Below are positions 5,765 to 27,261 of a DNA stretch of 64,000 nt, in pieces. The stretch lies in assembly GCA_012270795.1 (NCBI GenBank), contig JAAXHO010000059.1, positions 3,375-67,374 of the forward strand. The letters are read 5' to 3'. Position 1 is the stretch's first letter, and each line of letters starts with the position of its first letter. The position numbers and the translations under genes are program-made. The stretch comes from Candidatus Poribacteria bacterium (GTDB taxonomy: Bacteria; Poribacteria; WGA-4E; WGA-3G). Below the pieces are notes generated by a model. It made no database searches. It was given only the letters and a program-made list of their open reading frames with translations, and was not told the origin of the DNA.

Positions 5765-5809
5765 GAAAGTACTTAGATTAAATTTTGACATGAAAAGAGG
5801 TATTTCATT

Positions 5810-6535: not shown

Positions 6536-6567
6536 TATAATAAACTGTTACAATGGTAGGTAAATAG

Positions 6568-7686
6568 ATGGTGCAAAAACGAGATTACTATGAAATCTTA
6601 AATGTAAACCGAGATGCAGACGATAACGATATTAAAAAAGCTTATCGGAAATTAGCGATTAAATATCATCCGGACAAAAATCCTGATGATAAAGAAGCTG
6701 AAGAAAAGTTTAAAGAAGCAACCGAGGCGTATGATGTCCTCAAAACACCAGAGAAACGACAAAGGTACGATCAATATGGACATGCTGGTCTTGAAGGTGC
6801 AACTTCAAGCGGTTATGGTTATGGTATAGATTTTGACCAAATTATCAAAGAGGTATTCGGCGATGTCTTTGGTGGTTCTCGTAGAACGCGACACCAGAGA
6901 CCTCATCAGGGACGCAATCTACAGGCAAAAATTGAGATTTCGCTTGAGGATGCATACAATGGACGTGAAGTAACACTTGAAATCCCACGTATAGAATCCT
7001 GTCCTGAGTGTAGTGGTAGTGGTGCCGAAGCAGGGACAACAGTAGATACATGTCCTCAGTGCAATGGACGTGGACAAGTGACTCAATCTCAGGGCTTTTT
7101 CATGATGACTCGCACCTGTCCGCGTTGTCGGGGTGAAGGGCAGCTTATTTTAAACCCTTGCAGGAAATGCAATGGACAAGGCAGAATAAGAGTTGAACGA
7201 GAAATAAAAATGTCTGTTGACAAGGGTGTAGATAATGGATTTGAATATCGGATGCGTGGAGAAGGAGAGACAGGAACACTCGGTGGACCCCCTGGTGATC
7301 TCCTCGTAGGAGTATTCGTGAGACCTCACGACCAGTTTAAACGCGATGGCAACGATCTGATTACTACAACAAAAATATCGTTTGTTCAAGCTGCTCTTGG
7401 GTGTTCCATAGAAATTAACGGAATTGATGGTCGTCATGAGTTATCTATACCTGCAGGTACTCAGTTTGGGGATCTGCTCCGGATTCCAGGAAAAGGGATG
7501 CCGAGATATAGAAGTTCCAGTTTTGGTGATCTTATCGTTCAAGTTGGGATTGAAACACCACGGAATCTTAATGAAGAAGAACGGAATTTATTAGAACAAT
7601 TTTCAGGTCTACGAGGAGAATCTACTAAATCGGGGCATGGAAGTTTTTGGGACAAATTGTTTAACCCAAACGATCATGAAGAATAA
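6568..7686 (+). CDS. dnaJ: chaperone DnaJ
   Basis: J domain (HPDKN), G/F region, and four CxxCxGxG zinc-finger repeats. Confidence 0.95.
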
Positions 7687-7762
7687 ATATATTATATTCT
7701 GAGTTCCAGCGCGCTTACAAAACGCGCCTACCGTTGGATGTGTAAGTCCTACCACAATTACA

Positions 7763-8647
7763 ATGCATTGGGCACGTATTACGGTAACAACTACTGATCA
7801 AGCATCAGAAGCAGTTGCGAATTTTCTTTTTGAAATAGATGCTTTTGGTGTTGAACTAATAGACACTGACGATTCAACTACCAATCTTATTGCCTATTTT
7901 CCGCTTGATGACCGGGTTAACTCTCGAGTTCAGAAAATAAGGACTTTTCTCTCTAAACTTCCATTTTGGGGAATCCAAGCACAACCTGCGATAATAGATT
8001 TAAAGCGGGTTGAAGCAGAGGAATGGACAGAAGCATGGAAGTCAACTTTCTCGCCACAGCATATCGGAAAACGCCTACTTGTTACACCGACTTGGTATGA
8101 CATACCACCAGATGAAGAAACAATTGTTATAAGACTTGATCCGGGAATGGCGTTTGGCACTGGATACCATCCTACGACACGTCTAACATTAGAAATGTTG
8201 GAAAAAACGATTAAACCAAATCAACTTGTTGCAGATATTGGAACAGGTTCTGGTATTCTTGCGATTGCTGCTGTGAAGTTAGGGGCAAAAAGAGTTGATA
8301 CAACCGAACTTGATAATACTGCAATTCCCGTCGCGCAAACTAACCTTGAAATCAATGATGTAGCAGAACAAATTACCTTGTGTCAAGGTGATGGTCTTAA
8401 ACCTCTGTCTGAGAAATACGATGTTATAGTGGGTAATATATTAACCAAAGTAGTCCTGACAATTGTTCCAGACTGTCAATCACGGTTGCTTCCTGAAGGT
8501 CATGTAATTTTTTCAGGGATATTAGAGACAGAACTTGATGTAGTGCAGCAGTCATTAACAGAACACGGATTCCATATTGTTGAAGTTATACGGGAAGCGG
8601 ATGAAGGTGTTGTATGGGTTGCTATCTTAGCGCGGGTCCTTAGCTAA
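7763..8647 (+). CDS. prmA: ribosomal protein L11 methyltransferase
   Basis: PrmA-like architecture with the SAM-binding motif DIGTGSGILAIAA. Confidence 0.9.
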   Translation: MHWARITVTTTDQASEAVANFLFEIDAFGVELIDTDDSTTNLIAYFPLDDRVNSRVQKIRTFLSKLPFWGIQAQPAIIDLKRVEAEEWTEAWKSTFSPQHIGKRLLVTPTWYDIPPDEETIVIRLDPGMAFGTGYHPTTRLTLEMLEKTIKPNQLVADIGTGSGILAIAAVKLGAKRVDTTELDNTAIPVAQTNLEINDVAEQITLCQGDGLKPLSEKYDVIVGNILTKVVLTIVPDCQSRLLPEGHVIFSGILETELDVVQQSLTEHGFHIVEVIREADEGVVWVAILARVLS

Positions 8648-8884
8648 GCCGTGGCAAAGAGTACACCTGCCTAAGTTGAGATGTGGCATCGTGGGTGATT
8701 TCTCATCCCCTTTTAGATGGCATTTTAAGCATGCAGGTGCTTCTGTAGATTGCCGATGTTCTATAATGTTTGAACGGGCGGGGGCTGCGTTGAAGAAAAG
8801 AATAACCATCACTATTGCATATATCAGGCCAATTACACAGACTATATACATTAAGGTTTTGGGACTGGCTTGTTCGGTTGGCAT
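8627..8884 (-). CDS. small membrane-anchored diheme c-type cytochrome (85 aa)
   Basis: One TM helix followed by two CXXCH haem-binding motifs (CLKCH, CTLCH). Convergent with the prmA end, overlapping it by about 20 bp. Confidence 0.45.
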   Translation of the reverse strand: MPTEQASPKTLMYIVCVIGLIYAIVMVILFFNAAPARSNIIEHRQSTEAPACLKCHLKGDEKSPTMPHLNLGRCTLCHGLAKDPR

Positions 8885-11983: not shown

Positions 11984-14857
11984 CTACTTGCCGCCCAATT
12001 TGCTGAGCCGTTTTTCTGCTTCAAGTTTCCACTGTTCAGGGGGTTTTAATTCTAAGAAACGTTTCCACTGTTCCCTTGCTAACTTGTTTCGTTCGGTATA
12101 TTCGTACATCAAGGCAAGATTGTAGTTTGCGGTCATATTTCTGGGTTCCAGTTCGAGTGCGCGTTCAAACTGGTCTGCAGCTGCGCCAAGTTTATCCATG
12201 CTGTAAAGCACGTTAGCATATACGATAATCGTTGGTACATGGTTTTCATTTAATTCAAGTGCCTTATCTAACATATCCTTTGCTTTATTTAATTCTAACT
12301 GATTATTGTAATACAGGTCACCAAGACGTTGATATGCTACAGTGGCTTTTTTGTTTATAGCGATCTCTTTTTCATAGAGTCTGATTGCTTCTTTCCAGTT
12401 CTGGCTACGTTCTGCCAGTTTACCGAGTTGTGTATGAACGCCTTTATAGTTTGGATCCATCTGTATGACTTTTTTGAATGTGTCCTCTGCGAGTCTGTAT
12501 TGTTCAATCCAGAGTTGGATAGAACCGATATGGAAGTATGCATCAACGTTTTTTGGGTCTATGTCGACGACCTGCTTGAAGTCTTCCATAATTTGACTGC
12601 TACGATAGAGTGTATCACCAATTCGTTTATAGCGGTTTGTAATGAGGCCGCGATGATAATATGCGTCCACGTGGTCGGGTTTTAGGGCGATAGTGGCAGT
12701 ATATTCTTTTACAGCCAATTCCGCGTGATGGTGATAGTCTTCAAGTGTTGCAGCATGCCCATCCAACAAGAGTGCGTAGCGATAGTGCCAGTCAACATGT
12801 TCGGGATCATGTTCGTTTGCTAAACCGTAATGATGCAATGCTTGTTGAAGGTTTTCTGCTTTGTTGTCTTCAGGCCCTTTTTTGAATCGTTTCTCAAAGG
12901 TGACAGCAAGTGTATGGTGGACATTTGGATGGGCAGGATCAAGTATTAATGCTGGTTGATAGACACGTATCATGTTATCTTCATCTTTCCGCTGTTCATA
13001 GATACCGCCAAGTCGGAAAAAGGGTTCTGCGTTTTCAGGATCAAGTTCAATAGTTTTCTCAAAATATACAATGGCATTGTCAATATCGTCCTTCTTTTGA
13101 TATAAAATTCCGGTCTGATATTGTGCATCAACATTGTCAGGTTGTAACCGAATGGTCTCTAAGAAAGCGGAGAGAGCTTCGTCGTCCTTTTCAAGTGCTA
13201 CATAAGAAAGGGCGGAGAGATAGTGTGCTTGTGCATCGGTTGCGTCAATTGCTATTATCCTTTTCAGTGTATCAATTGCATTTTGATGGGAAGCATCACC
13301 ACGATAGATATGAACCATTTTGTAAAGCACATCTGGTCTCTTTGCATCTAACTGCAATGTTTTTTCATAATAGACAAGGGCGTTGGTATTGTCTTCATTT
13401 GCTTCGTAACTCTGTCCTAACAGATATGTCGCATCAATATCTTTAGGATATAGAATTATATGCATGTTTAACGATTCAACGGCATCAGTGTAGTTCTCAT
13501 TTTCATAAGCAGATTTGCCTTGCGTCCAATATTTTGTCGCAAGTGTAGGATTGAATTCAATTGCCTTTCTGAGGTTTACGGCTGCCTCTTCTAATTTGCC
13601 TTGCTTGAAATAGAGTTCCCCCAGATACATATATGAGTCATTGAAGTGTCCAAAAGTTGGTGTTTTCTCAAGATAACTTGGATCTGCTTCAATAATCTCA
13701 ATAGTTTTTTTGTAGAGAGTGATGGCTTGTTCGACATTCTTATCATTTGCTTCAATACTTGCGAGATAAAAATAGGAGCGTGGGTCTTCGGGGAGAATAA
13801 GCATCGTTTTCTCTAAAATCTTACGTGCGTCTGCTGCATCCATTTCACTTACAAAAAAGGGTTTTAATGGTTCAAATAGGGCATCTTTTAGTGTTGGGTC
13901 ATCGTCTATTGCTTGTTGGTAATGTGTTTTTGCGGTCTCAACATCGCCTTGTGAATATAGGACTTCTGCTATAGCAAGGTGTGCTGGACCATACGCTGGA
14001 TCAATCTCAAGTGCGCGACGATACAACTGAACTGCCCCATCTGCGTTGTCACCTTCAGCGAAGATCACACCCAAATCATAGACATCTTTCGCAGTGTAGG
14101 GTTGATATTCTGCAGATTTTTGATATTCCAACAGTGCCTCATCATAAAACTTTTCCTTTGCAAGCACTTGACCTAATTTGATATATGCAGGTGCAAATTT
14201 GCGGTTGTTTTGAATAGCGCGTTCAAATGTCTCTCGCGCTTGATTCAGATTACCTTGGCCAAGGTAAACTAACCCTCTACCATAAACTGGGTATTCCCAT
14301 TTCGGGTTTAGCGTTTGTGCAACTTCAAAGGATTGGAGGGCTTCGGCATGTTTGCCCTGTTTGAGGTAGATTTCGCCTATGTAGTAGTGTGTAGGATAGA
14401 ACTCTGGATTTATGGTGAGACAGGTTTGGAATTTGATGAGTGCTTGTTCGTAATTTTCCATTTTTTTGTGGGCTGCACCGAGACTGTAATGTGCCCAAAA
14501 CATTGAGGGGTCAAGTTGAAGAGCGGTTTCATAGTTCATGATCGCCATCGCATCTGTGGTTGTATTTTGCTTTGTGTCAGACAATGCGTAGGCATAACCT
14601 AATCCGTAGAAGAACGCTGCATCATTTGCTTTGTTTGCTTTTTCGGTTTCATAGAGTTGTATGAGTTCTGTAAGAAGTTCCTGCTTTCGCCATTCAACAA
14701 CCAGTTCACGATGTTTTTCTGGTGCGTCTTTTTTTGCATTCAGAACCTTCGTGAAGTCTTTTTGCATTTTTTGTAATAAGTCATCTTGTGAGTGTGTATT
14801 TACTGCAATCGTAAAAAATGTGAATAAAAATATGAGCGAGAATACGATGCTTTTCAT
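11984..14857 (-). CDS. tetratricopeptide-repeat protein with signal peptide (957 aa)
   Basis: N-terminal signal peptide followed by more than 20 TPR-like repeats. Confidence 0.85.
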   Translation of the reverse strand: MKSIVFSLIFLFTFFTIAVNTHSQDDLLQKMQKDFTKVLNAKKDAPEKHRELVVEWRKQELLTELIQLYETEKANKANDAAFFYGLGYAYALSDTKQNTTTDAMAIMNYETALQLDPSMFWAHYSLGAAHKKMENYEQALIKFQTCLTINPEFYPTHYYIGEIYLKQGKHAEALQSFEVAQTLNPKWEYPVYGRGLVYLGQGNLNQARETFERAIQNNRKFAPAYIKLGQVLAKEKFYDEALLEYQKSAEYQPYTAKDVYDLGVIFAEGDNADGAVQLYRRALEIDPAYGPAHLAIAEVLYSQGDVETAKTHYQQAIDDDPTLKDALFEPLKPFFVSEMDAADARKILEKTMLILPEDPRSYFYLASIEANDKNVEQAITLYKKTIEIIEADPSYLEKTPTFGHFNDSYMYLGELYFKQGKLEEAAVNLRKAIEFNPTLATKYWTQGKSAYENENYTDAVESLNMHIILYPKDIDATYLLGQSYEANEDNTNALVYYEKTLQLDAKRPDVLYKMVHIYRGDASHQNAIDTLKRIIAIDATDAQAHYLSALSYVALEKDDEALSAFLETIRLQPDNVDAQYQTGILYQKKDDIDNAIVYFEKTIELDPENAEPFFRLGGIYEQRKDEDNMIRVYQPALILDPAHPNVHHTLAVTFEKRFKKGPEDNKAENLQQALHHYGLANEHDPEHVDWHYRYALLLDGHAATLEDYHHHAELAVKEYTATIALKPDHVDAYYHRGLITNRYKRIGDTLYRSSQIMEDFKQVVDIDPKNVDAYFHIGSIQLWIEQYRLAEDTFKKVIQMDPNYKGVHTQLGKLAERSQNWKEAIRLYEKEIAINKKATVAYQRLGDLYYNNQLELNKAKDMLDKALELNENHVPTIIVYANVLYSMDKLGAAADQFERALELEPRNMTANYNLALMYEYTERNKLAREQWKRFLELKPPEQWKLEAEKRLSKLGGK

Positions 14858-14913
14858 TTTTTAATTCCTCCCTACGTCGTTATACCCAATTAACGTGTTC
14901 TGTATTGCTAAGA

Positions 14914-14933
14914 GTGCGGTTAGGAAACCGCAC
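14914..14933. terminator. 8 bp stem hairpin GTGCGGTT-AGGA-AACCGCAC between ribokinase and the TPR gene
   Basis: Perfect short hairpin with no clear T-tract on either strand. Confidence 0.25.
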
Positions 14934-14979
14934 CTACCGGGAAAAGGAAATCCCGTTAATTTGGTATTTTATTAAGTTT

Positions 14980-15915
14980 TTATTTTCCTAAAAGGATTGA
15001 TTTAATTTTTTCTTGTGTTGGCATTGATGGTGTTGCACCAAGTACCGTGGTTGCTGCTGCGCCTGCAGCTGCGGCATATTTCACTGCATCCATCAGTTCG
15101 CTACCTTTTGCGAGTGCTGTTGCCAATGCCCCACTAAACGCATCTCCTGCCCCTGTTGTATCCACAACATCAACCGAAATCGCTGGGATGTGTGTGCATT
15201 CTTTATGTGTGCAGAGCAAAACCCCTTGTTCTCCAAGTGTTATCACTACTGCTGAAAGTCTATCAGGAGCAATCTTTGCACGTAATGCTTTTGCAGCTGT
15301 GATAGCAGTTTCTGGTGATGTCACTTCAACCCCTGATAAAACCGTTGCTTCTATTTCGTTGGGTTTCAGGATATTTACATGTGACAATATACTTGATGGT
15401 AGTTGTCGCGCTGGTGCAGGATCCAAAACCACGTTTGTATTATTTATTCTTGCAATCTCTATTGCTTTTTGCGATGCATCTATCGGTGTTTCTAATTGTA
15501 GCAGCAAAACATCTGCTTTTGCAATGCTTTCTGCTGCGTCTTCAATATCCTTGGGGGTTAGTCGCATATTCGCACGGGGGATAACGATGATACTGTTTTC
15601 ACCATCTGGTTGGACAACTATCGTGGCGATTCCGGTTCCGCTCTCTGCATCGGTTTTGACATATTGGCTGTTGATGTTTTCTGCGTCTATTGCGGTTCGG
15701 AGTATGTCTGCGAAAGGGTCGTCACCTATTCTACCGATAAGCGTGACTTGTGCGCCTAATCGGGCTGCGGCTGTGGCTTGATTGAAACCTTTGCCACCTG
15801 TGAAGATGTCAAACGTTTCTCCGATGAGGGTTTCGCCTCTGTTTGGCATCCGTTCTGCGCGAATGACAAGGTCAACGTTTGCACTGCCGAGGACGGTGAC
15901 TTTGGGAGGCTGCAT
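14980..15915 (-). CDS. rbsK: ribokinase (PfkB family)
   Basis: N-terminal GG motif region and the anion-hole motif DTTGAGDAF. Confidence 0.9.
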   Translation of the reverse strand: MQPPKVTVLGSANVDLVIRAERMPNRGETLIGETFDIFTGGKGFNQATAAARLGAQVTLIGRIGDDPFADILRTAIDAENINSQYVKTDAESGTGIATIVVQPDGENSIIVIPRANMRLTPKDIEDAAESIAKADVLLLQLETPIDASQKAIEIARINNTNVVLDPAPARQLPSSILSHVNILKPNEIEATVLSGVEVTSPETAITAAKALRAKIAPDRLSAVVITLGEQGVLLCTHKECTHIPAISVDVVDTTGAGDAFSGALATALAKGSELMDAVKYAAAAGAAATTVLGATPSMPTQEKIKSILLGK

Positions 15916-15919
15916 CGGT

Positions 15920-16855
15920 TTACACTTCCGATCCGTTCAATGCTTGTAAGAATGCCTCAACACCGGGTGTCTTGACTGCTGTGCGGTGAAGCTCTGTCAA
16001 ACGCTCAAGGTCTTGAATAGAATCAAGAGCAGGCTCTAGGCGTTGCACATCGCTTTGCGGAAAGCGTTCGGTTAGCACAGAATATATATTCTTGATTGCC
16101 ATTTCACGTGCAGCTTGTTGCTTAAGGTGTTCAATAAATGGAAATTCTTGCATCATGTCCTCCGATATGAGTCTTTGTAAAAAAGTTAGGTCATGCACTA
16201 AACTACTCAACGTTGTCATCGCAAACAACAGTGTGCCACGCGTCTGTGAATCAACAGGCGCGGCAACTGTCTTCTCAACACATTTTTCCAACCATGTTTC
16301 CGCGTCCATACCTTCTGGCGGTCTCATCAAAGGTGTGAAAGGTAACAATCCAACCGATGCTGCCTCCAAAAACGATTCATCTTCCAAATTCGCCAACCGA
16401 ATTACGTGATACTTATGCTGCAAACCAAAATCATCTTTTCCATAACTATAACCGCCTGGGTCGGTTTTCCCCGCATTTGGACTGAGATATATCACCACTG
16501 AATACACAGGAAGTTCATGACGTAACAGGAGTTCACTTGTGTATGAGAGCATCCGCAACGGCATCGGTTTATCTCTGCTATCCTCGGTTTGCACCTCTAT
16601 GTGAAGTAGGACTTCCTCATTGTGCCAAAGCACCTTAAATGTCATGTCATTGCGTTGCACCTTTATGTGAAGTAGGACTTCCTCATTGTGCCAAAGCACC
16701 TTAAATGTCATGTCATTGCGTTGCACCTTAACCCGTTGTTGTTCGATGTCAAGTGTTTCTAATACTTGGATATCGGGTGTGCCAAAGGATAGCATGGCGA
16801 ACTCATCGGCGTACTGGTGCATCAGATGCTTCACGATCTCATCATATTGTGCCAT
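15920..16855 (-). CDS. Rpn-family recombination-promoting nuclease / putative transposase (PDDEXK_7 + DUF4351-like C-terminus) carrying an in-frame 22 aa tandem duplication
   Basis: Motifs DMTFKVLW, HIEVQ and PLRMLSY are typical of the YhgA/Rpn family. The C-terminal helical region is DUF4351-like. A 66 bp tandem repeat is visible in the DNA. Confidence 0.65.
   Translation of the reverse strand: MAQYDEIVKHLMHQYADEFAMLSFGTPDIQVLETLDIEQQRVKVQRNDMTFKVLWHNEEVLLHIKVQRNDMTFKVLWHNEEVLLHIEVQTEDSRDKPMPLRMLSYTSELLLRHELPVYSVVIYLSPNAGKTDPGGYSYGKDDFGLQHKYHVIRLANLEDESFLEAASVGLLPFTPLMRPPEGMDAETWLEKCVEKTVAAPVDSQTRGTLLFAMTTLSSLVHDLTFLQRLISEDMMQEFPFIEHLKQQAAREMAIKNIYSVLTERFPQSDVQRLEPALDSIQDLERLTELHRTAVKTPGVEAFLQALNGSEV
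16591..16722. repeat. 66 bp x 2 direct tandem duplication (one mismatch) inside the Rpn-family gene
   Basis: Units at 16591-16656 and 16657-16722 encode the duplicated peptide KVQRNDMTFKVLWHNEEVLLHI. Confidence 0.9.
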
Positions 16856-16968
16856 GTTCAGTCGTATGCCTTTCCTAAAAGTCTTTTATTGATTATACTT
16901 GACGGGGTGGTGGTTTGTCAAGGGAAGTTTTTTTGGTGGGTGTTGGAGAGGAAAAGGCAGATGGTAGG

Positions 16969-19437
16969 TTATTCTTCTATTAGTTGCATGATTTCATCAG
17001 CACCGAAATTTAAAATAAATTCAGCATAATGGCTCGAAAACACATCTTTTAGGTAGGTCTTCAATTCAACATCTAATTTCGATCCGTTTTCGCTTTCCTG
17101 CACAACTTGATATTTATGTGCTTTTGTAATTGAGTACAAAAACAGTGTGTGGGCATACACAGAAGCAATATATTTCCGTTTACTGAATTCATTTTGTTCC
17201 TCGCTTGGATTTCTATTTTTTCTATGAAAATTTAGCCAAACTGTACTGTCCATGTTGATGTAAACGCGCTCTAATTTCTCACCGTTTACCATAGGATACA
17301 TTACAGTTGAGAAGTTCATCTCCTCTCCGATTGCTTCTTCAACTTGTTTCCAAGTTAATCCACCGTTTCTCTCAGGTCTTTCTTTTTCGTAAACGAGTGT
17401 TAGGCCGGGTAACCCTAAAGTTGGAATTTCTCTTTCTTCGGGTTTTGGTGCAGGCTCGGTAGGGGCTTTAGGTTCGCTAATTTTTACCCAAAATAGTTCT
17501 TTCAATTCTTCAGTAGCACCAGTCAAACTGACTTTAATTCTCACTTCGTCCCCGACATTAACAGTCTCTTTTGGGTTAAGATGAATCTTGATTGTCCCTT
17601 CTTGTGGACTGCTCTTGCTCGCATTGAATACCTCGTCAATTCTGTCAACTTGTCCAGGGGCATTTCCACCCTCTGTTTCATTTACTTTATAATCAAGAAT
17701 AGCAATCTTCAGTTCTCCAGGTTCTTCTATACGATCAAGGTAATTATTCTCCACATCCGTGTCAAATAGAATTGCTTTTTCTCCATCCTTGGGTATTGTT
17801 ACTGCCTCTTGTTCTGATTTTCCATTGGTCCTGCGTTTAAAGATTGCGGGAAATCGTTGTGGATTAAAAGGTTCAGGTTCCTTTTTCCTGCGTTTTTTCT
17901 TGGTTGAGCCATTGGCATTTTTATTCCAATTGCCTTTAGACTTCAAATCCAAATTTAATGTTTGGTCCAACAATTTCAGCAGGTCTTCGTTCCGAACGAT
18001 ATTTTTTGCAAAAGTTTTTATCAGTTCTTTTATATCTTCACTCTCAACAGTTATTGAATCTTTGCGTTGTCTGTGGATTTGTGCTAAACGTCCATTTCTG
18101 TCACCAAGTTTTTCTGCTAAATATTTTCGTAATGTCCTTGTTTCCTCACCATCTTTTAATCGGTCTCGAGATGCCATAAATAACTCTTTTCGGAAATCGT
18201 AGTTCATGTTTGTACAATCAACATGAATTAGAAGATGTTCCTTAAGTAGATTCAATTTGAGAGATCGGGTTATGAATTCCGATGTGTAATGACCATGTGT
18301 TTGCCCATTGACCGAAAATAGCACAGACATATTATTTTTGAAAAACTCTTTCCGAATTGTAGTTTTGGTCTCTTTGACGGATTTCTCATCAAGCTTTGTC
18401 TTAAAAACATAACATGTCACTTTCATTTTACCAAACAGTGCATCATCAAAATCTTCAGAAAAGCGTTTGTCAACGTATTTATAATCTTCTTGTTCTAATC
18501 TGCGTTTTAATCCATATAATCCTGTTCGTAGGGGACTCTTAGGATAACGTTTTTCATTTTCAATCGTATATACTGGTAATACAGGTTCAAATAGGTACTC
18601 ATTAATGCTCAGGTTTAAATCCCTTGAAATATCGGAGATTCCAGGTATATCGTAAGAGTATAGTTTTATGATTGACCCTGTAGTAAATTTCCTCTTGAAG
18701 AGACCTAAATCCAATTTAGCAATATCAAAAGCTGGAATTTTTTCGCCAATTTTCAAATATTCGTACCATGTATTCTTTTTTGTACTTTCCTCTGCTTCGC
18801 TTAGTGGATGCTCCCTGATAAGTGTAAAACCGAATTGTCCTGAATTGTCGAAACGTTTTGATGCGATTAATTGGTAACGTTTCTTGCCACAAAACACAAT
18901 AGCACCACTACCACCCATATTGTATTTTCCTTGCACAAAGTGAATTTCATTTTTATTTCCTCGCAATAACGACAAGAAGGTGTCTTCGAACTTTTCGGGA
19001 TGTTGTCCTTCACCATCATCATAAATAATAAGTGAGGTGTATTTTTTTGGACCATCGGCAAGAATTTGGATACTCTCTGCTTGTTCGTTTCTTGCTCCTG
19101 CCAAATCCCAATGTTTATGATTTGGAAAGAATTTCGTTCTGGCTTCTTCCATAGATTTAGGTGCTTGTGAGGATTTTGGATCAATGCCAACTTCCAGACA
19201 TTTTTTCATTAAAACAGCATCAATTGAGTTGGTGATTTTTTCAATCAGAGCGGCTATTGGAGCAGACTGTTGGTTTTCAATGACACCAAAATTATTGTCG
19301 TTGTCGCCAAGTGGATGCCAATTTTCAGGTTTGAAAATGTCCGGATAAGTATTTATGATTTTATCAAGTTCTTGCTCGGTTTGGGCAAAATATAGCTCGT
19401 TAAAAAGTTTTTTCATGTCCATTTGTAAGAAATCCAT
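16969..19437 (-). CDS. GHKL (Hsp90/MutL/MORC-like) ATPase-domain protein, 822 aa; candidate effector partner of the adjacent Ssp-like module
   Basis: GHKL N-box EKITNSIDA, G1 box DDGEG and G2 box GKYNMGGSGAI lie in the first 180 aa. A lysine/arginine-rich stretch (KKKRRKK) sits mid-protein. The gene begins 34 bp downstream of the PAPS-reductase gene on the same strand. Confidence 0.7.
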   Translation of the reverse strand: MDFLQMDMKKLFNELYFAQTEQELDKIINTYPDIFKPENWHPLGDNDNNFGVIENQQSAPIAALIEKITNSIDAVLMKKCLEVGIDPKSSQAPKSMEEARTKFFPNHKHWDLAGARNEQAESIQILADGPKKYTSLIIYDDGEGQHPEKFEDTFLSLLRGNKNEIHFVQGKYNMGGSGAIVFCGKKRYQLIASKRFDNSGQFGFTLIREHPLSEAEESTKKNTWYEYLKIGEKIPAFDIAKLDLGLFKRKFTTGSIIKLYSYDIPGISDISRDLNLSINEYLFEPVLPVYTIENEKRYPKSPLRTGLYGLKRRLEQEDYKYVDKRFSEDFDDALFGKMKVTCYVFKTKLDEKSVKETKTTIRKEFFKNNMSVLFSVNGQTHGHYTSEFITRSLKLNLLKEHLLIHVDCTNMNYDFRKELFMASRDRLKDGEETRTLRKYLAEKLGDRNGRLAQIHRQRKDSITVESEDIKELIKTFAKNIVRNEDLLKLLDQTLNLDLKSKGNWNKNANGSTKKKRRKKEPEPFNPQRFPAIFKRRTNGKSEQEAVTIPKDGEKAILFDTDVENNYLDRIEEPGELKIAILDYKVNETEGGNAPGQVDRIDEVFNASKSSPQEGTIKIHLNPKETVNVGDEVRIKVSLTGATEELKELFWVKISEPKAPTEPAPKPEEREIPTLGLPGLTLVYEKERPERNGGLTWKQVEEAIGEEMNFSTVMYPMVNGEKLERVYINMDSTVWLNFHRKNRNPSEEQNEFSKRKYIASVYAHTLFLYSITKAHKYQVVQESENGSKLDVELKTYLKDVFSSHYAEFILNFGADEIMQLIEE

Positions 19438-19471
19438 TCTATCAATTCAATCAAAATGTAATGTCAACATG

Positions 19472-20290
19472 TTACTTATGACAAATCAGACAAGGTTCCT
19501 CGTCATCCTCGTCATCGTGAACATCCGTAAGAATTTCTATCAGTCGACGATTCGGTTTTTCCTTTTTCTTGGATGCCTTCGCCTTCTCAGTCCTTGCCTT
19601 GATTTGTGCTATCCGTTCAGGTTCTGCCAATTCCTCTAAACTTTCCCCTTGACTCCACGTGAACCGTTCACCTGTCTCTGTGTTGAATTTCTCATATCCT
19701 TTTGCCAGTTCAAAGAGATCTGGATGTTGCTCTAAGAGGCCCACCCATTCAGATTTGCGTTGGAAAAAGCAGAAGTAGCAACCAGAACGCGTACGCCATT
19801 TGTAATAGTCAGGCAAACCGAGTCCGCTCTCCTCAAGGATACGGTAAACGTCCTCTTTGGTGATGCCGTCATCTTTGAATGGGTATTTAGGGAAAATGTT
19901 TTGAAGGGAGCTTATTTTAGGTGGTTTGTACCCGACACGATCCTCGTCTGCACGGATAGCGATGTAGTGATACACTTGGTCATCACCGACATATTCCTCA
20001 AAAGGTTTGATTTTGAGTTTGATGGTGCACCAACGAACTTGAGAGGATGGCAATAATCCACCGTGTAGTGTTAACCAGTGATCAAAGTCACGATCCATGT
20101 TGAGTCGTGCAATCGGTTTGCCGAGGAATGCTTCAAGCCGGTCCAAAAACTCGTATGTCTCTGGCAGTTCTTTACCGGTATCTGTGAAAAAGTATTCCAT
20201 TTCTGGTACTTTGTCGCGCATGTAGACAGCAAGTGCTGAGCTGTCTTTTCCGCCTGAAAGACCAAGTAGGTGTCGTATTTTTTGTGGCAT
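19472..20290 (-). CDS. PAPS reductase-family protein (DndC/SspD/BrxP-like ATP pyrophosphatase)
   Basis: PP-loop motif LSGGKDSS and the C-terminal CYFC cysteine pair. An AGGAG RBS lies 7 nt upstream of ATG 20290. The longest ORF extends to 20335. Confidence 0.8.
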   Translation of the reverse strand: MPQKIRHLLGLSGGKDSSALAVYMRDKVPEMEYFFTDTGKELPETYEFLDRLEAFLGKPIARLNMDRDFDHWLTLHGGLLPSSQVRWCTIKLKIKPFEEYVGDDQVYHYIAIRADEDRVGYKPPKISSLQNIFPKYPFKDDGITKEDVYRILEESGLGLPDYYKWRTRSGCYFCFFQRKSEWVGLLEQHPDLFELAKGYEKFNTETGERFTWSQGESLEELAEPERIAQIKARTEKAKASKKKEKPNRRLIEILTDVHDDEDDEEPCLICHK

Positions 20291-20325
20291 GTTGTCTCCT
20301 TTCAAATAAATTTTTATATCACAGG

Positions 20326-20754
20326 ACTTACGCATTTTCTCTTAAAGTCCCACTGATAAGGGGATTTAGAGGGTTATAGTAAAATCTATAATTAATGGGA
20401 CACTTCTGTAGCGCAAACTTTAGTTTGCGTCTCATCGGCACAAACTAAAGTTTGTGCTACAATCTCTGTTGTCCGTTATGTTTCCAAAATAGGTTTATCA
20501 AAGTGTCCTAATAATTTCAAAGTTCACTATAAATTAACCTAATTGCCACCTATGTAGCACAAACTTCAGTTTGTGCATCTGTGGAACGCAAACTAAAGTT
20601 TACGCTACAAAATATTGGCTAATTATCAGCATTTTTCACGAAAGACGGTGTTTCCATGTCTAAAACTTATAGGTAGCAACTTGGGTTATAAATAACTGAA
20701 ATAACGCCTTTTTAACCCCCTACCCCTTTATCATGGGGGAATGCGTAAGTCATG
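20326..20754. mobile_element. MITE-like element, family E: terminal inverted repeats GGACTTACGCATT / AATGCGTAAGTC with four internal 22-25 bp palindromic units (GCAAACTTTAGTTTGC type)
   Basis: Terminal inverted repeats at 20326-20341 and 20739-20754. Subterminal CTGATAAGGGGATTTAG(A/G)GGGTTA motifs. A partial copy lies at 1728-1790. Units are at about 20398-20419, 20427-20451, 20566-20588 and 20594-20620. Confidence 0.7.
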
Positions 20755-20760
20755 AAAATT

Positions 20761-23700
20761 TCACATCCTATTTTCAGATTGCTCCATCAATTTTTTTGAA
20801 ATTCGCGCCAAAATAGCAAGACGAAATTCGGAGTTTTTGTCTACATCAAGCTCATCAAAAATCTTTGTAATTGCTCGTTCTATTTTATCGGCATGTTCCT
20901 CATCAGTTAAATTAACAACTCGTTCCTGTTCGTGCTCGTTTGGTGTTGTAATGCCTATCCGAATTGTCTCACCAGATGATTTGGTGTGTTGCAGTTTTTC
21001 AAAAGAAACTGCTTCAAAATGTTGAAATTTTCTTGCAAGTTGCGAAAGGTTGATCTCAAATTGTGCTTTATCTGTGTCTATCCACGATGCAGGCGGTTTT
21101 TTGGCAAGAAAAGTGCCGATTGATTCAATCCAACCTGTGAAATCATGCCCTTCACTATAAAGATGGATTAAAAATCCTTTAAGTTGTGTCTCAATTGCCA
21201 CCTCTAACAAGGGTTCTGCTCTTGCGGCTAATTCTGCGCGGAGTTCTTCCGCTGTGGACTCCAACGTGAACGCATCTGCAAGCATCCGTTCAAGTGAGTT
21301 TAGCAGTCCTTCGTAAGCACTGCCGAGTTCAGACAATGCGTCTTGCAGTGTGTTAAAAAAGTCTGAAAGCATTTTTGAGTCTGTTGTTTCTGGACCAAAA
21401 CTTGGGAATCCGAATGCTTCGGGCAACTGTTTAAAAAGGAGTTCGTCAGGTTCACTTGCATTTTGAACAACTTTACGTAGATTTTTTGCTGCGTCACTCA
21501 ACTCCTGTGTTGTTAAAGTATATTTCGGTAGTTGCGCGATAAAACGCATCAATGGGGTGACAATTGTCAACAGGTCCGGGTTTTCAGTTTCCACAGGTTG
21601 ATTGAGCATCTTCAGAAATCGTGCAAATAGATCGGCACGGATTCCCGCCATTCGAAATCGCTTCAGTTCAAATTGTTCTGGTGCTTTAAGCAGACGTTCG
21701 AAAACTGGCGTTGACAGGTCAGCAATAAAGGAACCGTTCTCATAGAGTGCGATTTCTGTTCTGTAATGGAGGATCGCAGCACACAACAGAATAGGGAGTG
21801 GACCGCCACGGACGCCGAGTGGTGGTTGCATGAGAAATTTATAGAGATTTTCAACAGGCTGTCGCGTATCTTCACACTTGCTAAGAAACGTTTCAATTGC
21901 ATTCCAGGTGTGTTCTATTCCGTTTTTATCCTCTGCTTTTGGTGGATGGAACCCCCAAACACCTGAGGCATGACGGTGTATCCCCGTATCTAATAAGAGG
22001 GATCGGTAGATACTCATTTCAGGTGGAAACTTTTTGATACCGAGATTCTCTTTGTCCCCATTCTCAAGCATGGCTTGAATTAATTTTCTGCGTGCGTTTG
22101 TCGCAGCACCAGATATTTTGCGACGATTGATAAGTTCATTTCGTATGAGAGGCGTTTTGTGGAAAACCTTATCACATATTTTTGACAAGTATGCGTTTCG
22201 GGCACGTTGCGAGTTAATATTTACCGTTTCACCGTTGCAATACCATGAACAAGCATCTCCATTGTTTCCACTAAAAATTGTTGTTAACTGGTGAGATATA
22301 TTTCGCTCTGCTGCAATCTGATGCATTGAGAGTTCACGTCTTGCGACCGCATCACCTTCAAGTTCAAGCGTGTTGTCCGCAATCCACTGTAAGTGGACGA
22401 GTTGCATAACTGCATCGTCCAGAAAACCGGTGGAATGCGGAATCGCAATTAATACCTTTTTGCGATTTTCAGTATCAATGTTACTTGCCTTTTTAACGAG
22501 CTGCTTAACCTCATATTCGTTTGCAGGCAAAGTATAGAGGATAAGTCCGTCTGCATCATCAAGTGGGGCTGTGAGGGCTACATCAAAGTTTTCTAAATCA
22601 GTGTAGCGAATAGTGAAGTAACGTAGGGTACCGGTTTGGTATAAATGTCGCTTTGCAACAAGCGGGGGGGGCACGTTACGTGATAGATCTATAACGAGTG
22701 ATACTTTTGTGCCAACGTGCGCTGCTGCCTCACGGAGTTTTGCCGCAATGTCAATGTCGCTGCCTTCCCACAGCGCGTAAGTTTTGTTATATGTACGGTA
22801 GATAACAATTGAACGGTTTTTCAGTGTCCCAAGTGCATCTTCAAATTCGGTGGCAAATCCTGCTGTGTTATCGTCAAGTGCGTAACGTAGCAATTGCTCT
22901 GAGGCTTTCAGGTTAGGAATTGGTTCGCTAACAATGCTGAGTAGCCCGATGGTTTTTATCAGTTTAACCGTCATTTCGGAAGGGTCTGGTAGTTGCGTTA
23001 TTGCGGTTTCAATCTCTATCCATTTTTTGCTGTTGCTTGAAATATAGAGTTTATTGCCCTGCGTGGTACCAAGGTAGTCGTATAGGTCAGCGAGCGAAAA
23101 CATCGGTAGACTGTCACCGTCATAATGTTGGTTTGCAAGGAAGTCTTGTAACCCGTTCGGTGCACTTGAGCTGAGAAAAGCGAAGAGGGAACGTTCATTT
23201 TGTCCGAATCGGCGGAAAAGCGGGCCGATGAGGAGTGCTACTGTCGGATGCAGCGGCAGACAATCTTTCAAGAGTTGGATAAATTCATGATTGTCAAGTT
23301 GACGCGGTTTAAGTCCTAATTCGGTAGCGGTGTTAAGGTTTTCCCTGCAAACAATCTCTGCAGGTTTTTCAAGTGCAGCACCGACTAAACGGAGTACCTG
23401 TTCGGTAGGTTCTGCAAATGCCACATCTTCAAATCTTCCTTGCACCTTTGCCCACTCTTCGCGTTGTGATTGCGCGGTACGCTGTGCATACACCTCAAAA
23501 GCTTGGTGGAGGATAGTCATGAGAAATAGGGGCGTTTGCTTGCTTCTGTCTGCTAATTCCGCAAGGTTCTGTAGGATAAACATATCCCCTTGTGTTGGGT
23601 GTTGCGTAGCGTATTCCAGAAACTTACCGAGTTCGTCAATCACGAGCAGCAGTCCCGCACCTCCCGAATCACAAATTTCGTGCGTTGCTAATTCAAACAC

Positions 23701-24246
23701 ACGCGCAACTTCAGAGGCAGGTGGTAAGGTGTCATTTTCTGCTTTTTCCAACAAATTATTGAGTTCTTGAAGGAGAGAAATAGAGAGTTGTGTACTGTTG
23801 GCAGCGGTGAGTCCGCGTTCTAAACCGCGCAAAAGTGCAAGCGAAAGAGGGGCGCGTTCGCCAGAGATAAGCACGGGACAGAATCCAGAGGGTGTGTGCT
23901 TTTCGTTACCGTTTGTGCTGATGAATCGCTCATATAACGAAGCATCTCCACGTTTGAGTATTTCTAAGGCGTGTTGTGTTGTCGGGGCATTAGGTTTGCC
24001 AAGCAATTTTGCAGCGAAAAGTGCGAACGCTGATTTTCCTGACCCATAGGGGCCGGTGAGTGTCCATGCTTTAGATGTTGCTTCATTTTCAAACGTTGAA
24101 ATAACACGCGATAACATTTCCCGCGCGGTGGCGGTTAAAATGTATCCATCAAGCACGTTTTCTGTGTAAAAGTCGCGTTCAAGATGTACTGAACGCCGAA
24201 AACGTCCTTGGACATGGAAAATATCTGAAAGCGGAATGTCATCCAT
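20761..24246 (-). CDS. large P-loop ATPase (1161 aa), SspC/BrxC(PglY)-like
   Basis: Walker A TLTGPYGSGKSAF at about residue 60 and Walker B LLLVIDELGKF at about residue 200, followed by a long alpha-helical C-terminal region. Its ATG overlaps the stop codon of the upstream DUF4007 gene (ATGGATGA). Confidence 0.7.
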   Translation of the reverse strand: MDDIPLSDIFHVQGRFRRSVHLERDFYTENVLDGYILTATAREMLSRVISTFENEATSKAWTLTGPYGSGKSAFALFAAKLLGKPNAPTTQHALEILKRGDASLYERFISTNGNEKHTPSGFCPVLISGERAPLSLALLRGLERGLTAANSTQLSISLLQELNNLLEKAENDTLPPASEVARVFELATHEICDSGGAGLLLVIDELGKFLEYATQHPTQGDMFILQNLAELADRSKQTPLFLMTILHQAFEVYAQRTAQSQREEWAKVQGRFEDVAFAEPTEQVLRLVGAALEKPAEIVCRENLNTATELGLKPRQLDNHEFIQLLKDCLPLHPTVALLIGPLFRRFGQNERSLFAFLSSSAPNGLQDFLANQHYDGDSLPMFSLADLYDYLGTTQGNKLYISSNSKKWIEIETAITQLPDPSEMTVKLIKTIGLLSIVSEPIPNLKASEQLLRYALDDNTAGFATEFEDALGTLKNRSIVIYRTYNKTYALWEGSDIDIAAKLREAAAHVGTKVSLVIDLSRNVPPPLVAKRHLYQTGTLRYFTIRYTDLENFDVALTAPLDDADGLILYTLPANEYEVKQLVKKASNIDTENRKKVLIAIPHSTGFLDDAVMQLVHLQWIADNTLELEGDAVARRELSMHQIAAERNISHQLTTIFSGNNGDACSWYCNGETVNINSQRARNAYLSKICDKVFHKTPLIRNELINRRKISGAATNARRKLIQAMLENGDKENLGIKKFPPEMSIYRSLLLDTGIHRHASGVWGFHPPKAEDKNGIEHTWNAIETFLSKCEDTRQPVENLYKFLMQPPLGVRGGPLPILLCAAILHYRTEIALYENGSFIADLSTPVFERLLKAPEQFELKRFRMAGIRADLFARFLKMLNQPVETENPDLLTIVTPLMRFIAQLPKYTLTTQELSDAAKNLRKVVQNASEPDELLFKQLPEAFGFPSFGPETTDSKMLSDFFNTLQDALSELGSAYEGLLNSLERMLADAFTLESTAEELRAELAARAEPLLEVAIETQLKGFLIHLYSEGHDFTGWIESIGTFLAKKPPASWIDTDKAQFEINLSQLARKFQHFEAVSFEKLQHTKSSGETIRIGITTPNEHEQERVVNLTDEEHADKIERAITKIFDELDVDKNSEFRLAILARISKKLMEQSENRM

Positions 24247-25246
24247 AATATCTCTCTAAAGGTAGCATCGGATTATAATCTCTATAGCGATAGACCTGCT
24301 TTAAGTCAGCGGTTTCGTCGTACTGCAACGCACCATCGGTGAGTTGTTCAAGCTTTTCAAGATATATCGTCATCGTGTCTTCGTCTAATTTAAAAATGCG
24401 TCCGGGACTTAATGGGGCGTACATCAGTTCTGTAAAAGGTAGTGCGTCTTTTTCGGAGAAACGCGCATCCCAAAAGGCGATGAGTGTTGCTGTCACAACC
24501 TCAATTGGCAACGTCTCTTTTTCGCCGCGCTGGAATTCATACATGCCGCTATCTGGCAATTCGGTGATGAGGTTAAGTTCAACGAGTGGACAGTCAAACG
24601 TATCTTCCACTACGTCAGCGTTATGGCGTGATTGGCAGTAGGTTCGGATAAAGCAATTGACATCTCGCTGCATCGTATTCTCAGAAAAAGTACGCATAGA
24701 TTTTTTCTGCTGTTTTGCCCATTCGTACAATTCTTCCGTGAATGCTGTACGAACAAATTGATTTTTCTTTAAGATATTAAATGCCCAATACCATGCTGTT
24801 GCCTGATTGATGTTCGTTGCGATCTGCCAATGGATTAACCACAAAGTGGCAGGATCATCCAAGTATGGGTCAAATCCGTTTTTGTCGTTAAAAATGGCGT
24901 TACCGAGTGTAGTTGGAACGAATCGCCCCTGTTGATAACCATCTACCTTGATGAGTCTTGCTACACGACACCAATGCCGAATAGAATCCACCATATTTTT
25001 TCCGACACCTAAAATTACAGACGCGTACTCTGAGGAAAAGATCGTTGAATCATCTGTTACAGCATCAACCCCCTTTTTTAGCCATGTATACCGAAACGGA
25101 AAGGTTTGGTGACCAGAAAAGGACGGATTGATTATATACGGAGTAGCTGTATGTTCTGCAAGTAGTAGGTTTTCCATACAAATTATTATACCATACGCGC
25201 AACAAAAATGGCAATACATCTTAACAAAAAGTGCAGATGAATTCAA
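24239..25246 (-). CDS. DUF4007-like protein (SspB-like)
   Basis: Near-N-terminal motif FSGHQTFPFRYTWLKKG is characteristic of DUF4007 (recalled from memory). The true start is probably the internal Met at about 25177 (MENLLLAEH...). There is an 8 bp overlap with the ATPase gene. Confidence 0.55.
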   Translation of the reverse strand: MNSSALFVKMYCHFCCAYGIIICMENLLLAEHTATPYIINPSFSGHQTFPFRYTWLKKGVDAVTDDSTIFSSEYASVILGVGKNMVDSIRHWCRVARLIKVDGYQQGRFVPTTLGNAIFNDKNGFDPYLDDPATLWLIHWQIATNINQATAWYWAFNILKKNQFVRTAFTEELYEWAKQQKKSMRTFSENTMQRDVNCFIRTYCQSRHNADVVEDTFDCPLVELNLITELPDSGMYEFQRGEKETLPIEVVTATLIAFWDARFSEKDALPFTELMYAPLSPGRIFKLDEDTMTIYLEKLEQLTDGALQYDETADLKQVYRYRDYNPMLPLERYYG

Positions 25247-25451
25247 TTTTCAAAATGTACTCTTGTAGTAGGAATTTTCAATCTCAATTTTCCCTTCTTC
25301 TACAAGCGAGGAGGACTTCAATTTGTGAACCATGTCCCAATTGTGGAATTTTTTAGTTGTTTTTTTTGGGAATTTTGCATTTTTTTGAGATGTGTTCTCG
25401 ATCGTGTCACGGTATGGGTTTATGGTGGTTTATTAAATTTGCGAAATTTTG

Positions 25452-25486
25452 AAAAAAACAACTAAATGGGTTTTGGTTGTTTTTTT
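25452..25486. promoter_or_regulatory. 11 bp stem hairpin AAAAAAACAAC-N13-GTTGTTTTTTT in the AT-rich region upstream of the DUF4007-ATPase operon
   Basis: Inverted repeat with flanking T/A runs. The GTTGTTTTTTTT motif is repeated at about 25357. Confidence 0.35.
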
Positions 25487-25653
25487 GTCTGTGCTTTTTA
25501 GTTGATTCATTATTGCCTTTTTTATCGTAAAATTATATTAGATGGTCGTAATTTTCTGTAAGGAAACTGGTATCGGAAACAATATATATCCAATAAATAT
25601 CCAATAAATTTGGTTAGATTTCTATGGTTGAAATGTTGTTATATTCAATCAGA

Positions 25654-26670
25654 TTATTTTTCTGCATCTACAGGCATTGCGCGTTGAGGGATGTCCACGC
25701 CTTGTTCCTTCCAAAACTTATATGCCCCCCGATGTAGCGGAATGAGAAAAGCCTTTGACGCATTCTCAATCGTCATATCCGATGCGGCTTGATTTGTTTG
25801 GAGCATGATATTGTGTCCTTCCTCTGTATAAGCATGCTTGAGGATATTATAGATAATCTCCTCAGAAACAGCTTTGTTCGCAACGAGGACGGTTGGCATC
25901 GCGATAGTCTTTACGGGTTCAACTTTACCCTCATAGCAACCATCAGGGAGTTTCCCAGAGAAATAATAGGGGTATTTTTCATAGAGACCGAACTTTTTAG
26001 CGGGTGTGTCAAGGTCAAGCATTCGGATAGATTTTGTCGTAGTTAAGTAAATAATCGCATCATTCGGTACACTGACAAGCCAGAAAAACCCTTTAGCATT
26101 TCCATCTTGGAGTTCTTGTGCGCCGTTAGTGCCACCCCTATAAATCGGCGTAAACTTGTTCCAGATACCAGCAACCTCAGCCAGCCGTTCTAAGGTTTGA
26201 GCAGTCCCTGAACCAGACGCACCACAAGCGATCTTTTTGCCAACAATGTCTTCCAATGTGTGGACATCGCTATTCTCAAGTGTTGAGAATTGACCGTAGG
26301 CATAGTAAAGTAAGGTAACCATACGGATGTTCGTTTTTGGTTCTTCATTAGCGAATGCCTCCTGACCGTGATATCCGAGAGAACTTTCAGAAGCGAAAAC
26401 TACCGCAAGGGCATTTTGATCTTCGTTAACTCTGCGTGTATTTTCAATTGAACCTGAGGAGGACACAACAGAAATTTTGACATCAGTGGCATGTTGTTTC
26501 GCAATCTGCTTGATTCCACCGGCAAATTGCGAAAAACTTCCACCGATGACACCTCCATAAATTGACAGCCATTCTTTGTTTTTATTATCACCGCAGCCAA
26601 TAAAGAGAGTCAATAAAACCAGAATAAGACTACAAAAAACCGCAAAAATTTGATTTAACTTTTTCATCAT
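25654..26670 (-). CDS. TRAP transporter solute receptor, TAXI family (lipoprotein)
   Basis: Signal peptide with lipobox LFIGC. TAXI-like sequence throughout. Confidence 0.75.
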   Translation of the reverse strand: MMKKLNQIFAVFCSLILVLLTLFIGCGDNKNKEWLSIYGGVIGGSFSQFAGGIKQIAKQHATDVKISVVSSSGSIENTRRVNEDQNALAVVFASESSLGYHGQEAFANEEPKTNIRMVTLLYYAYGQFSTLENSDVHTLEDIVGKKIACGASGSGTAQTLERLAEVAGIWNKFTPIYRGGTNGAQELQDGNAKGFFWLVSVPNDAIIYLTTTKSIRMLDLDTPAKKFGLYEKYPYYFSGKLPDGCYEGKVEPVKTIAMPTVLVANKAVSEEIIYNILKHAYTEEGHNIMLQTNQAASDMTIENASKAFLIPLHRGAYKFWKEQGVDIPQRAMPVDAEK

Positions 26671-26704
26671 AAGTTTTCCTTTTTATCTATTTAGAATCAA
26701 ATAC

Positions 26705-26882
26705 AGAATCTTATACCATTTCTAAAATTTAATTTCTCATTAGCTGCGAAGATTTGGTAGGAGCGACCTCCCGGTCGCGACCGGGAGGTCGCTCCTACCG
26801 AAGAGAGGCACCCCAACCAGCAATAACAGTGAAATTCCTTAATGAGACAATATTTTTTAGAATTGGTATTACTTTTTACTTC
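26705..26882. mobile_element. MITE-like element, family A (terminal ...ATACCATTTCTAA... / ...TTAGAATTGGTATTAC), with a 44 bp perfect palindrome core GGTAGGAGCGACCTCCCGGTCGCGACCGGGAGGTCGCTCCTACC
   Basis: The core at 26756-26799 is a perfect palindrome. Related copies are listed below. Confidence 0.8.
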
Positions 26883-27261
26883 TATTGTAATAGAGATAAA
26901 CACCTAAAACGCCTGCGATTGAACCGATGACATCCGCGACCCAATCTGCCAGGGTAGCATACCTGCCGGGAACAAACTTTTGATGCAATTCATCACTTGC
27001 ACCATAGAGGATTGAAATGAGTGCGGCTGTTATCCATATCCATTTTGTTGGGAAACGTTTTGGAGGGGCTTTAACAAGTGCTATTGATAGCAACACGCTG
27101 AGGATGCCATATTCTATGAAATGATAGAGTTTGTCTATTGTCAACCACTCGAACTTTGGCATTGGGAGCGGTGGTTGCTCCAAAGACGAGATGACAAATA
27201 TGAGTGTCATGTAGAGAACTGGGAGTGCCCAGTATTTAAGATAGCGCATCCAGTATTGCAT
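26869..27261 (-). CDS. VanZ-like family membrane protein
   Basis: VanZ motifs [15 protein letters not shown] and DWVADVIG. The start was chosen at an internal Met to avoid overlapping the upstream gene. Confidence 0.6.

Follow-up and report, generated by a model that had tools for sequence, protein, structure and literature searches.

Single-strand phosphorothioation (PT) of DNA by Ssp systems depends on a modification module of three proteins, SspB, SspC and SspD, whose roles have been described (PMC12707154, PMC10853773, PMC12914056, PMC9646914). SspA can be substituted by IscS-type enzymes (PMC12914056, PMC12707154), and in a survey from 2021 sspE or sspFGH was located near only about 15% of 2678 sspBCD clusters (PMC8092258). 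PAPS-reductase and DUF4007 modules are also used in BREX type 4, which is defined by brxP (encoding a PAPS-reductase-DUF4007 fusion), brxC, pglZ and brxL (PMC12914056, PMC12839542). Here we analysed an open reading frame (ORF) of 1161 codons on the minus strand of a 64,000-nucleotide stretch (the window) of contig JAAXHO010000059.1 from a Candidatus Poribacteria bacterium, and we conclude with a probability of about 0.9 that it encodes an SspC of the functional type within an SspBCD module. Directly downstream of this module lies a gene for a GHKL-type ATPase of 822 amino acids (aa), referred to as G822, which may be a so far unnamed partner of Ssp.

The identity of the 1161-aa protein follows from profile matches that extend along nearly the entire polypeptide chain. 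Its best match in PADLOC is the SspC model PDLC02779 (E = 0, 1126 bits), which aligns residues 13-1079 of the protein with positions 2-1053 of the 1054 positions of the model, and altogether 13 SspC models match, the majority covering almost all of the protein and the top three with 1126, 994 and 901 bits; DndD models are absent from the PADLOC matches. A reading of the letters made beforehand without database searches (the sequence-only reading) had called the protein BrxC/PglY- or SspC-like and not SMC/DndD-like, in agreement with these matches. The DUF499 class, to which it had also assigned the protein, had to be rejected, as Pfam gives no DUF499 (PF04465) match for the protein at E ≤ 0.01 and DUF499 is not one of the 25 families that 42 relatives match most frequently at E ≤ 0.1; in the literature DUF499 is now separated from BrxC/SspC (PMC12839542). 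The related Pfam family is DUF6079 (BrxC-PglY_N, PF19557), which matches in 5 of the 42 relatives at E ≤ 0.1 and is found as a precomputed annotation, marked 'faint', on most of the best 120 homologues. NCBIfam contains no model for SspC or SspB. A PDB search with the single sequence gave no match; a profile of the 42 homologues matches the ATPase domain of the BrxC-BrxB structure 9zn5_A (E = 1.9e-4), with Walker A, Walker B and a GRF motif lined up. There are 5238 homologues in the protein database at E ≤ 1e-5, the few named ones among the closest belonging to metagenome-assembled genomes of Candidatus Poribacteria, and an identical copy is already present, unnamed, in NCBI/ENA. As thousands of homologues are known and the closest are found in Candidatus Poribacteria, there is nothing unusual about the SspC encoded here, which joins a large known family.

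The ORF is intact, starts with ATG and runs from 24246 down to 20761, as the sequence-only reading had stated, and the motifs of the protein are those of an ATPase that is very probably the ring-type AAA+ ATPase of the SspBCD single-strand PT module. The Walker A motif, GPYGSGKS, was expected at about residue 60 and comprises residues 65-72; the Walker B stretch LLLVIDE followed by LGKF, expected at about residue 200, covers residues 199-209, and the distance between the two motifs is 134 residues, close to the anticipated 140. We aligned 42 homologues with 19-80% identity (residue numbers are the true ones of the protein), all of which share G65, G68, G70, K71 and S72 of Walker A as well as D204 and E205 of Walker B and the subsequent G207, K208 and L210. 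Moreover, Q226, E230, H247, Y253, E264, W265, K267, G270, R271, Q349, R352 and F355 are invariant in 42/42 sequences, among them candidates for the arginine finger and the sensor motifs that the sequence-only reading had suggested looking for. H247, located at the end of the predicted strand that follows Walker B, is a candidate for sensor 1. R271 is the best candidate for the arginine finger since its GRF motif aligns with that of BrxC, the role being taken from the description of BrxC (PMC12839542), and R352, part of the QNERSLF motif, may be the sensor-2 or lid arginine; the roles of both arginines are inferred, as the structure model is unusable in the ATPase domain. The least conserved stretch, residues 81-200, lies between the Walker motifs, i.e. 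where BrxC also carries its large insert.

The remaining part of the chain, some 900 residues, had been described as helical. According to DSSP, the AlphaFold2 model, which is of low confidence (mean predicted local distance difference test score, pLDDT, 54.6), places 59% of the residues beyond 260 in helices and 5% in strands, so that the helical content is borne out in part, and strand-bearing segments are found at about 543-602, 665-674, 756-765 and 1079-1098. BrxC-type ATPases are built from winged helix-turn-helix (wHTH), alpha+beta, wHTH and coiled-coil modules and are not helical throughout (PMC12839542), and the model suggests that the C-terminal part of SspC, too, is probably not purely helical. 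With this model Foldseek returned no match at E ≤ 0.001.

Table 1. Features of the Ssp locus (positions in the window; motif roles and gene functions are predictions)
Feature	Position	Strand	Basis
sspC, 1161-aa AAA+ (ORC/Cdc6-like) ATPase of the Ssp phosphorothioation module	20761..24246	-	ORF, translation, PADLOC SspC match
Walker A / P-loop, G65-P-Y-G-S-G-K71-S72	24031..24054	-	motif reading and alignment of 42 homologues
Walker B, L199-L-L-V-I-D204-E205, then invariant G207-K208	23632..23652	-	motif reading and alignment
Arg271 in invariant W265-x-K267-x-x-G270-R271-F, candidate arginine finger	23434..23436	-	alignment; GRF of BrxC 9zn5_A
Arg352 in invariant Q349-N-E-R352-S-L-F355, candidate sensor-2 / lid arginine	23191..23193	-	alignment
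sspB (DUF4007), probable start ATG 25177, 312 aa	24239..25177	-	Pfam DUF4007 291 bits, PADLOC SspB 330 bits
sspD (PAPS-reductase / PP-loop SGGKDS), probable start ATG 20290, 272 aa	19472..20290	-	PADLOC SspD 396 bits, Pfam PAPS_reduct
Nested-hairpin repeat element in the sspC-sspD spacer	20400..20620	-	22-nt unit copies, RNA fold
G822, 822-aa GHKL-type ATPase, candidate Ssp-associated partner	16969..19437	-	35 bp downstream of sspD; HATPase_c_3, Bergerat motifs

The genes sspB, sspC and sspD lie on one strand in that order, and the same order is found in the eight related loci that we read gene by gene (including L001, L085-L088, L082 and L091). The stop of sspB and the start of sspC overlap by 8 bp, ATGGATGA, within TATTATGGATGACATT, which confirms the overlap with a DUF4007 gene described in the sequence-only reading, the upstream ORF being a DUF4007 gene according to Pfam. 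The PAPS-reductase and DUF4007 proteins have a gene each, housekeeping genes make up the remainder of the window, PglZ and BrxL are absent from it, and therefore the locus is an sspB-sspC-sspD module. The mechanically called sspB ORF reaches a TTG at 25246 (24239..25246, 335 aa); both SspB matches, Pfam DUF4007 and PADLOC SspB, begin at its residue 42-43, and the sequence suggests that the true product may have 312 rather than 335 aa. A promoter-like TTGCCA-18-TATAAT at 25177-25214 on the minus strand ends 7 nt ahead of the ATG at 25177; overall, the scans for promoters and terminators did not rise above background, and this site is a consensus match only. As there is no room for a Shine-Dalgarno sequence between the site and this ATG, the arrangement suggests that the sspB transcript may be leaderless or nearly leaderless. 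The mechanical sspD ORF reaches 20335, and SspD homologues have 272-278 aa.

The spacer between sspC and sspD (20336-20760) comprises about 425 bp, compared with about 70 bp in L001, a locus of 80% identity. It contains a MITE/REP-like element with a 22-nt hairpin unit, GTAGCRYAAACTNNAGTTTGYG, which has five matches in the window, all of them in the spacer, where none would be expected by chance, and the nested hairpin has a predicted RNA folding energy of -92 kcal/mol (z = -10.5). None of the 84 fetched loci contains the unit, and Rfam gave no match over 14000-27000.

Several observations weigh against the assignment as a working SspC. The Pfam score for DUF6079 is 14.6 bits, i.e. below the cut-off of 23, and the AlphaFold2 model, with a pLDDT of about 30 in the ATPase domain (37-sequence alignment), is not good enough to verify the AAA+ fold or where the arginines lie. 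The hairpin element, about 210 bp long, splits the sspC-sspD spacer and could affect co-expression. In addition, no sspA-like cysteine desulfurase was found in the window (tblastn E > 2), and PADLOC gave no match to SspE, SspF, SspG, SspH or SBD-HNH (SBD, sulfur-binding domain) among the neighbours, i.e. the window holds neither the linked SspA nor the known restriction partner of a complete SspABCD-SspE or SspFGH system. The absence of sspA is common because IscS-type enzymes replace it, and as most sspBCD clusters lack sspE/sspFGH as well, the missing partners do not affect the membership of the protein in the SspC family (PMC12914056, PMC12707154, PMC8092258).

By analogy with the characterised members of the Ssp family, the module may work as follows. 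As the window contains no sspA, persulfide sulfur would be supplied by a housekeeping cysteine desulfurase encoded elsewhere in the genome, and SspD, a protein of the PP-loop / PAPS-reductase type, would carry and activate it. SspB, with its DUF4007 multi-wHTH architecture, would recognise a short target motif and nick one strand. SspC would bind and hydrolyse ATP via K71 of Walker A and D204/E205 of Walker B, with R271 probably acting in trans as arginine finger in an oligomer that is probably ring-shaped, and the energy would serve to load or move the complex on DNA and to drive sulfur insertion. The resulting single-strand PT marks would label the chromosome as self, and the sole candidate for a reader or effector of the mark at this locus would be the GHKL ATPase encoded after sspD.

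In searches of PADLOC (including MzaB), of NCBIfam and, with the single sequence, of the PDB, G822 has no match. The Pfam domain HATPase_c_3 scores 21.7 bits on the protein of the window (cut-off 25) and matches 40 out of 40 sampled family members. The Bergerat motifs are intact (E66-x3-N70-x2-D73-A74, D140-x-G142-E-G144, G170-x4-G175-G-S-G178 and T205) and nearly invariant in an alignment of 100 members with a mean column identity of 24%. The family is large, with 1823 clusters (50% identity level) at E ≤ 1e-3 and 565 at E ≤ 1e-30, and many of its distant members match residues 8-580, approximately, only. Among 59 diverse members no further Pfam domain was detected, no nuclease motif was found in G822, and a profile search of the PDB with up to 100 diverse members gave no match. 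The AlphaFold2 model is poor (mean pLDDT 45.8, 37-sequence alignment), as is that of SspC, because both alignments are too shallow (37 sequences, 66-87% identity); generic matches of the G822 model to Ig-like beta-sandwiches at about 530-655 in Foldseek were not used.

Distant homologues of G822 occur outside Ssp loci. On haloarchaeal plasmids (25-29% identity; L084, Halogeometricum pHBOR02, 1789-5963; L090, Natronobeatus, 2459-8664) DNA methyltransferase genes, and not ssp genes, adjoin the homologue or lie near it, so that two of the three distant haloarchaeal homologues examined are found near DNA methyltransferase genes. This echoes prokaryotic MORC/paraMORC GHKL ATPases, which occur in restriction-modification loci (Iyer et al. 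2008, PMC2292703). The homologues in Pontibacillus (L083) and Haladaptatus (L089) have no annotated modification gene nearby.

Closer relatives of G822 are tied to Ssp. A scan with one genome per species yielded 464 relatives, and the best 80 loci, in which the protein is 55-83% identical to G822, were examined; represented among them are Poribacteria, many Bacteroidota, Gamma-, Beta- and Alphaproteobacteria, Oligoflexales, Latescibacterota and others. Wherever both 10-kb flanks were complete (51 loci), sspC and sspD are present within 10 kb, and 48 of these 51 loci contain all three of sspB, sspC and sspD (tblastn); the loci in which sspC/sspD were missing are truncated contigs. Depending on the lineage, the gene follows sspD on the same strand, precedes sspB, or is convergent. 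In loci whose SspC shares only 23-30% identity with that of the window, G822 is 55-64% identical, i.e. about twice as conserved. Two alphaproteobacterial plasmids also link G822 with ssp genes, the protein being annotated there as 'hypothetical protein'. On these plasmids (L082, Ensifer plasmid pC, 5333-9708; L091, Devosia plasmid, 12542-17044) a 'sensor histidine kinase' of about 780 aa and a hypothetical protein of about 640-680 aa are encoded beside the GHKL gene and may form a recurrent accessory pair.

The cassettes that often adjoin G822 are variable. Seven G822 loci carry SspE in the adjoining cassette, and others carry a DndB-like protein with a 170-aa protein, a DUF262/NsnA-like protein with a Ser/Thr kinase, an MzaB-like GHKL protein with a GIY-YIG protein, or SspA. 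Conversely, G822 is missing beside five closely related SspC proteins (72-80% identity), of which three are encoded at the same chromosomal site; in these five loci the slot after sspD is occupied by a ScoMcrA-type SBD-HNH protein with or without AAA_15, by SspE and DndB, or by a DndB-like pair. From the 51/51 linkage, the related sspBCD loci without G822 and the presence of SspE beside it in seven loci it follows that G822 is strictly tied to Ssp as an accessory element and lies outside the core modification machinery, and that it is not simply an alternative to SspE. We found no paper in open-access text that pairs sspBCD or phosphorothioation with GHKL, HATPase or MORC proteins.

How G822 would act is a more tentative matter. 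We consider it possible, at somewhat less than even odds, that it is an unnamed Ssp accessory, i.e. a MORC/MutL-like, ATP-driven DNA clamp that reads the PT status, and that the window thus carries a minimal four-gene sspBCD-GHKL defence system outside the PADLOC and NCBIfam collections. G822 might then restrict unmodified DNA itself, or it might license the variable effectors that adjoin it elsewhere, e.g. SspE, DndB-like proteins, DUF262 with a kinase, or GHKL with GIY-YIG. A competing reading is an 'orphan' PT module that is free of restriction and sets epigenetic or redox marks, with the GHKL gene as an unrelated neighbour. The low share of sspBCD clusters with sspE/sspFGH nearby (about 15%, PMC8092258), the closely related SspBCD loci that do without the GHKL gene and the lack of any nuclease motif found in the GHKL protein are all compatible with it. 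Nevertheless, we regard it as unlikely, since a linkage with sspC and sspD that holds in 51/51 full-flank GHKL loci across several phyla, in three gene orders or orientations and also on alphaproteobacterial plasmids cannot be explained by chance neighbourhood.

For SspC itself, one alternative is the BrxC of BREX type 4, i.e. of a phosphorothioation-based BREX system. SspC and this BrxC are homologous and have DUF6079 in common (PMC12914056), and the PADLOC BrxC model PDLC02478 matches the protein over nearly its full length with 647 bits. However, the three best SspC models score far above this value, PAPS-reductase and DUF4007 proteins are not fused to a BrxP, no PglZ or BrxL is encoded among the large ORFs of the window, and its sole Lon (46528-49032) is a housekeeping protease with an N-terminal substrate-binding domain, located beside trigger factor and ClpX. 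As the window thus lacks PglZ, BrxL and a fused BrxP, we rejected BREX type 4 on the basis of gene context and regard this identity as highly improbable. We assign next to no probability to an identity without relation to Ssp, be it a STAND/NACHT signalling NTPase or an SMC/ABC ATPase of the DndD kind: the weak Pfam matches of SspC relatives to AAA_16, AAA_22 and nSTAND1 are confined to the P-loop domain, as expected for ORC/Cdc6-STAND-like AAA+ proteins, the full-length matches go to SspC, so that best hits to NACHT/STAND families devoid of BrxC/SspC similarity, which the sequence-only reading had named as evidence against itself, did not appear, and DndD was rejected because no DndD model in PADLOC matches and the Walker layout is contiguous, with 134 residues and no coiled coil between the motifs.

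The Ssp genes and G822 occupy about 16.9 to 25.2 kb of the window and very probably constitute a small chromosomal island of a Candidatus Poribacteria-like genome. Elsewhere the window contains housekeeping genes, i.e. those for an NMT1-type binding protein, a PfkB kinase, a TPR protein, trigger factor, ClpX, a canonical Lon with substrate-binding domain, Ffh, cytochrome bd and DnaJ. Five loci (L001, L085, L086, L010 and L022), compared with 14980-25246 of the window, represent the same poribacterial site with different genes after sspD; the site is flanked by the PfkB kinase, a TPR protein of 957 aa and a lipoyl/biotin ligase. The position after sspD is taken by the GHKL protein, by SBD-HNH with or without AAA_15, by SspE with DndB, or by a DndB-like pair, and thus looks like a slot into which effectors are swapped. 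In one Poribacteria genome (L087, 9066-10008) sspB (DUF4007) is split into ORFs of 146 and 154 aa beside transposase genes, and two tandem SBD-HNH genes follow sspD; this Ssp module may be decaying. Beyond G822, an ORF of 311 aa (15920-16855, minus strand) contains a 66-bp tandem duplication at 16589-16729 (2.1 copies, 98% identical), which repeats 22 residues, KVQRNDMTFKVLWHNEEVLLHI. Its product has no family match, and the homologues located beside the same PfkB gene in other Poribacteria have 289-293 aa.

SspC itself is one more protein in a family of thousands. What the locus adds is that PT modules of sponge-associated Poribacteria sit at a chromosomal hot spot with an exchange of partner genes from strain to strain and, more notable than SspC, that sspBCD constantly accompanies an unannotated GHKL ATPase of high conservation. 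As a known restriction partner was present at only about 15% of sspBCD clusters in the 2021 survey (PMC8092258), a new partner family could help to explain how 'orphan' Ssp modules provide defence. If G822 is indeed a partner of Ssp, it would link MORC-like ATPases to the modification of the DNA backbone rather than of bases, and the sspBCD-GHKL unit might represent an undescribed type of Ssp-linked defence.

Among the known systems, the locus most closely resembles the SspABCD-SspE and SspFGH systems of Vibrio cyclitrophicus FF75, E. coli 3234/A and V. anguillarum FF-93, with which it shares the full-length SspC profile match, the N-terminal P-loop ATPase, the order sspB-sspC-sspD and the translational overlap. 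It differs in having no sspA, sspE or sspFGH nearby, and the SspC clade of the window is only 19-28% identical to the sampled SspC proteins of Bacteroidota and Pseudomonadota. The BrxC of BREX type 4 is a homologous ATPase of similar length that is related to SspC through the DUF6079 family and serves PT together with PAPS-reductase and DUF4007 modules (PMC12914056); BREX type 4 has PglZ/BrxL in addition, whereas SspB and SspD of the window are separate proteins and the BrxC model reaches about half of the SspC score. BrxC/PglY of BREX type 1 (BrxC-BrxB, PDB 9zn5) is more remote: the ORC/Cdc6-like AAA+ core, Walker A/B and GRF are alike, but the similarity is weak and restricted to the ATPase domain, the insert between Walker A and B is much longer than in SspC, and the protein partners a methyltransferase instead of serving sulfur insertion. 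DndD of the DndABCDE double-strand PT system is a functional analogue, i.e. an ATPase needed for PT installation (PMC12707154), but it belongs to the ABC/SMC superfamily and has a coiled coil between Walker A and B.

For G822 the closest parallel is found in the MORC/paraMORC proteins, which also combine an N-terminal GHKL ATPase and intact ATP motifs with a long C-terminal extension, and which are likewise tightly linked to a DNA-modification module. G822 differs from them in that no nuclease, helicase or S5 domain has been identified in it and in that its partner is a phosphorothioation module instead of a methylase.

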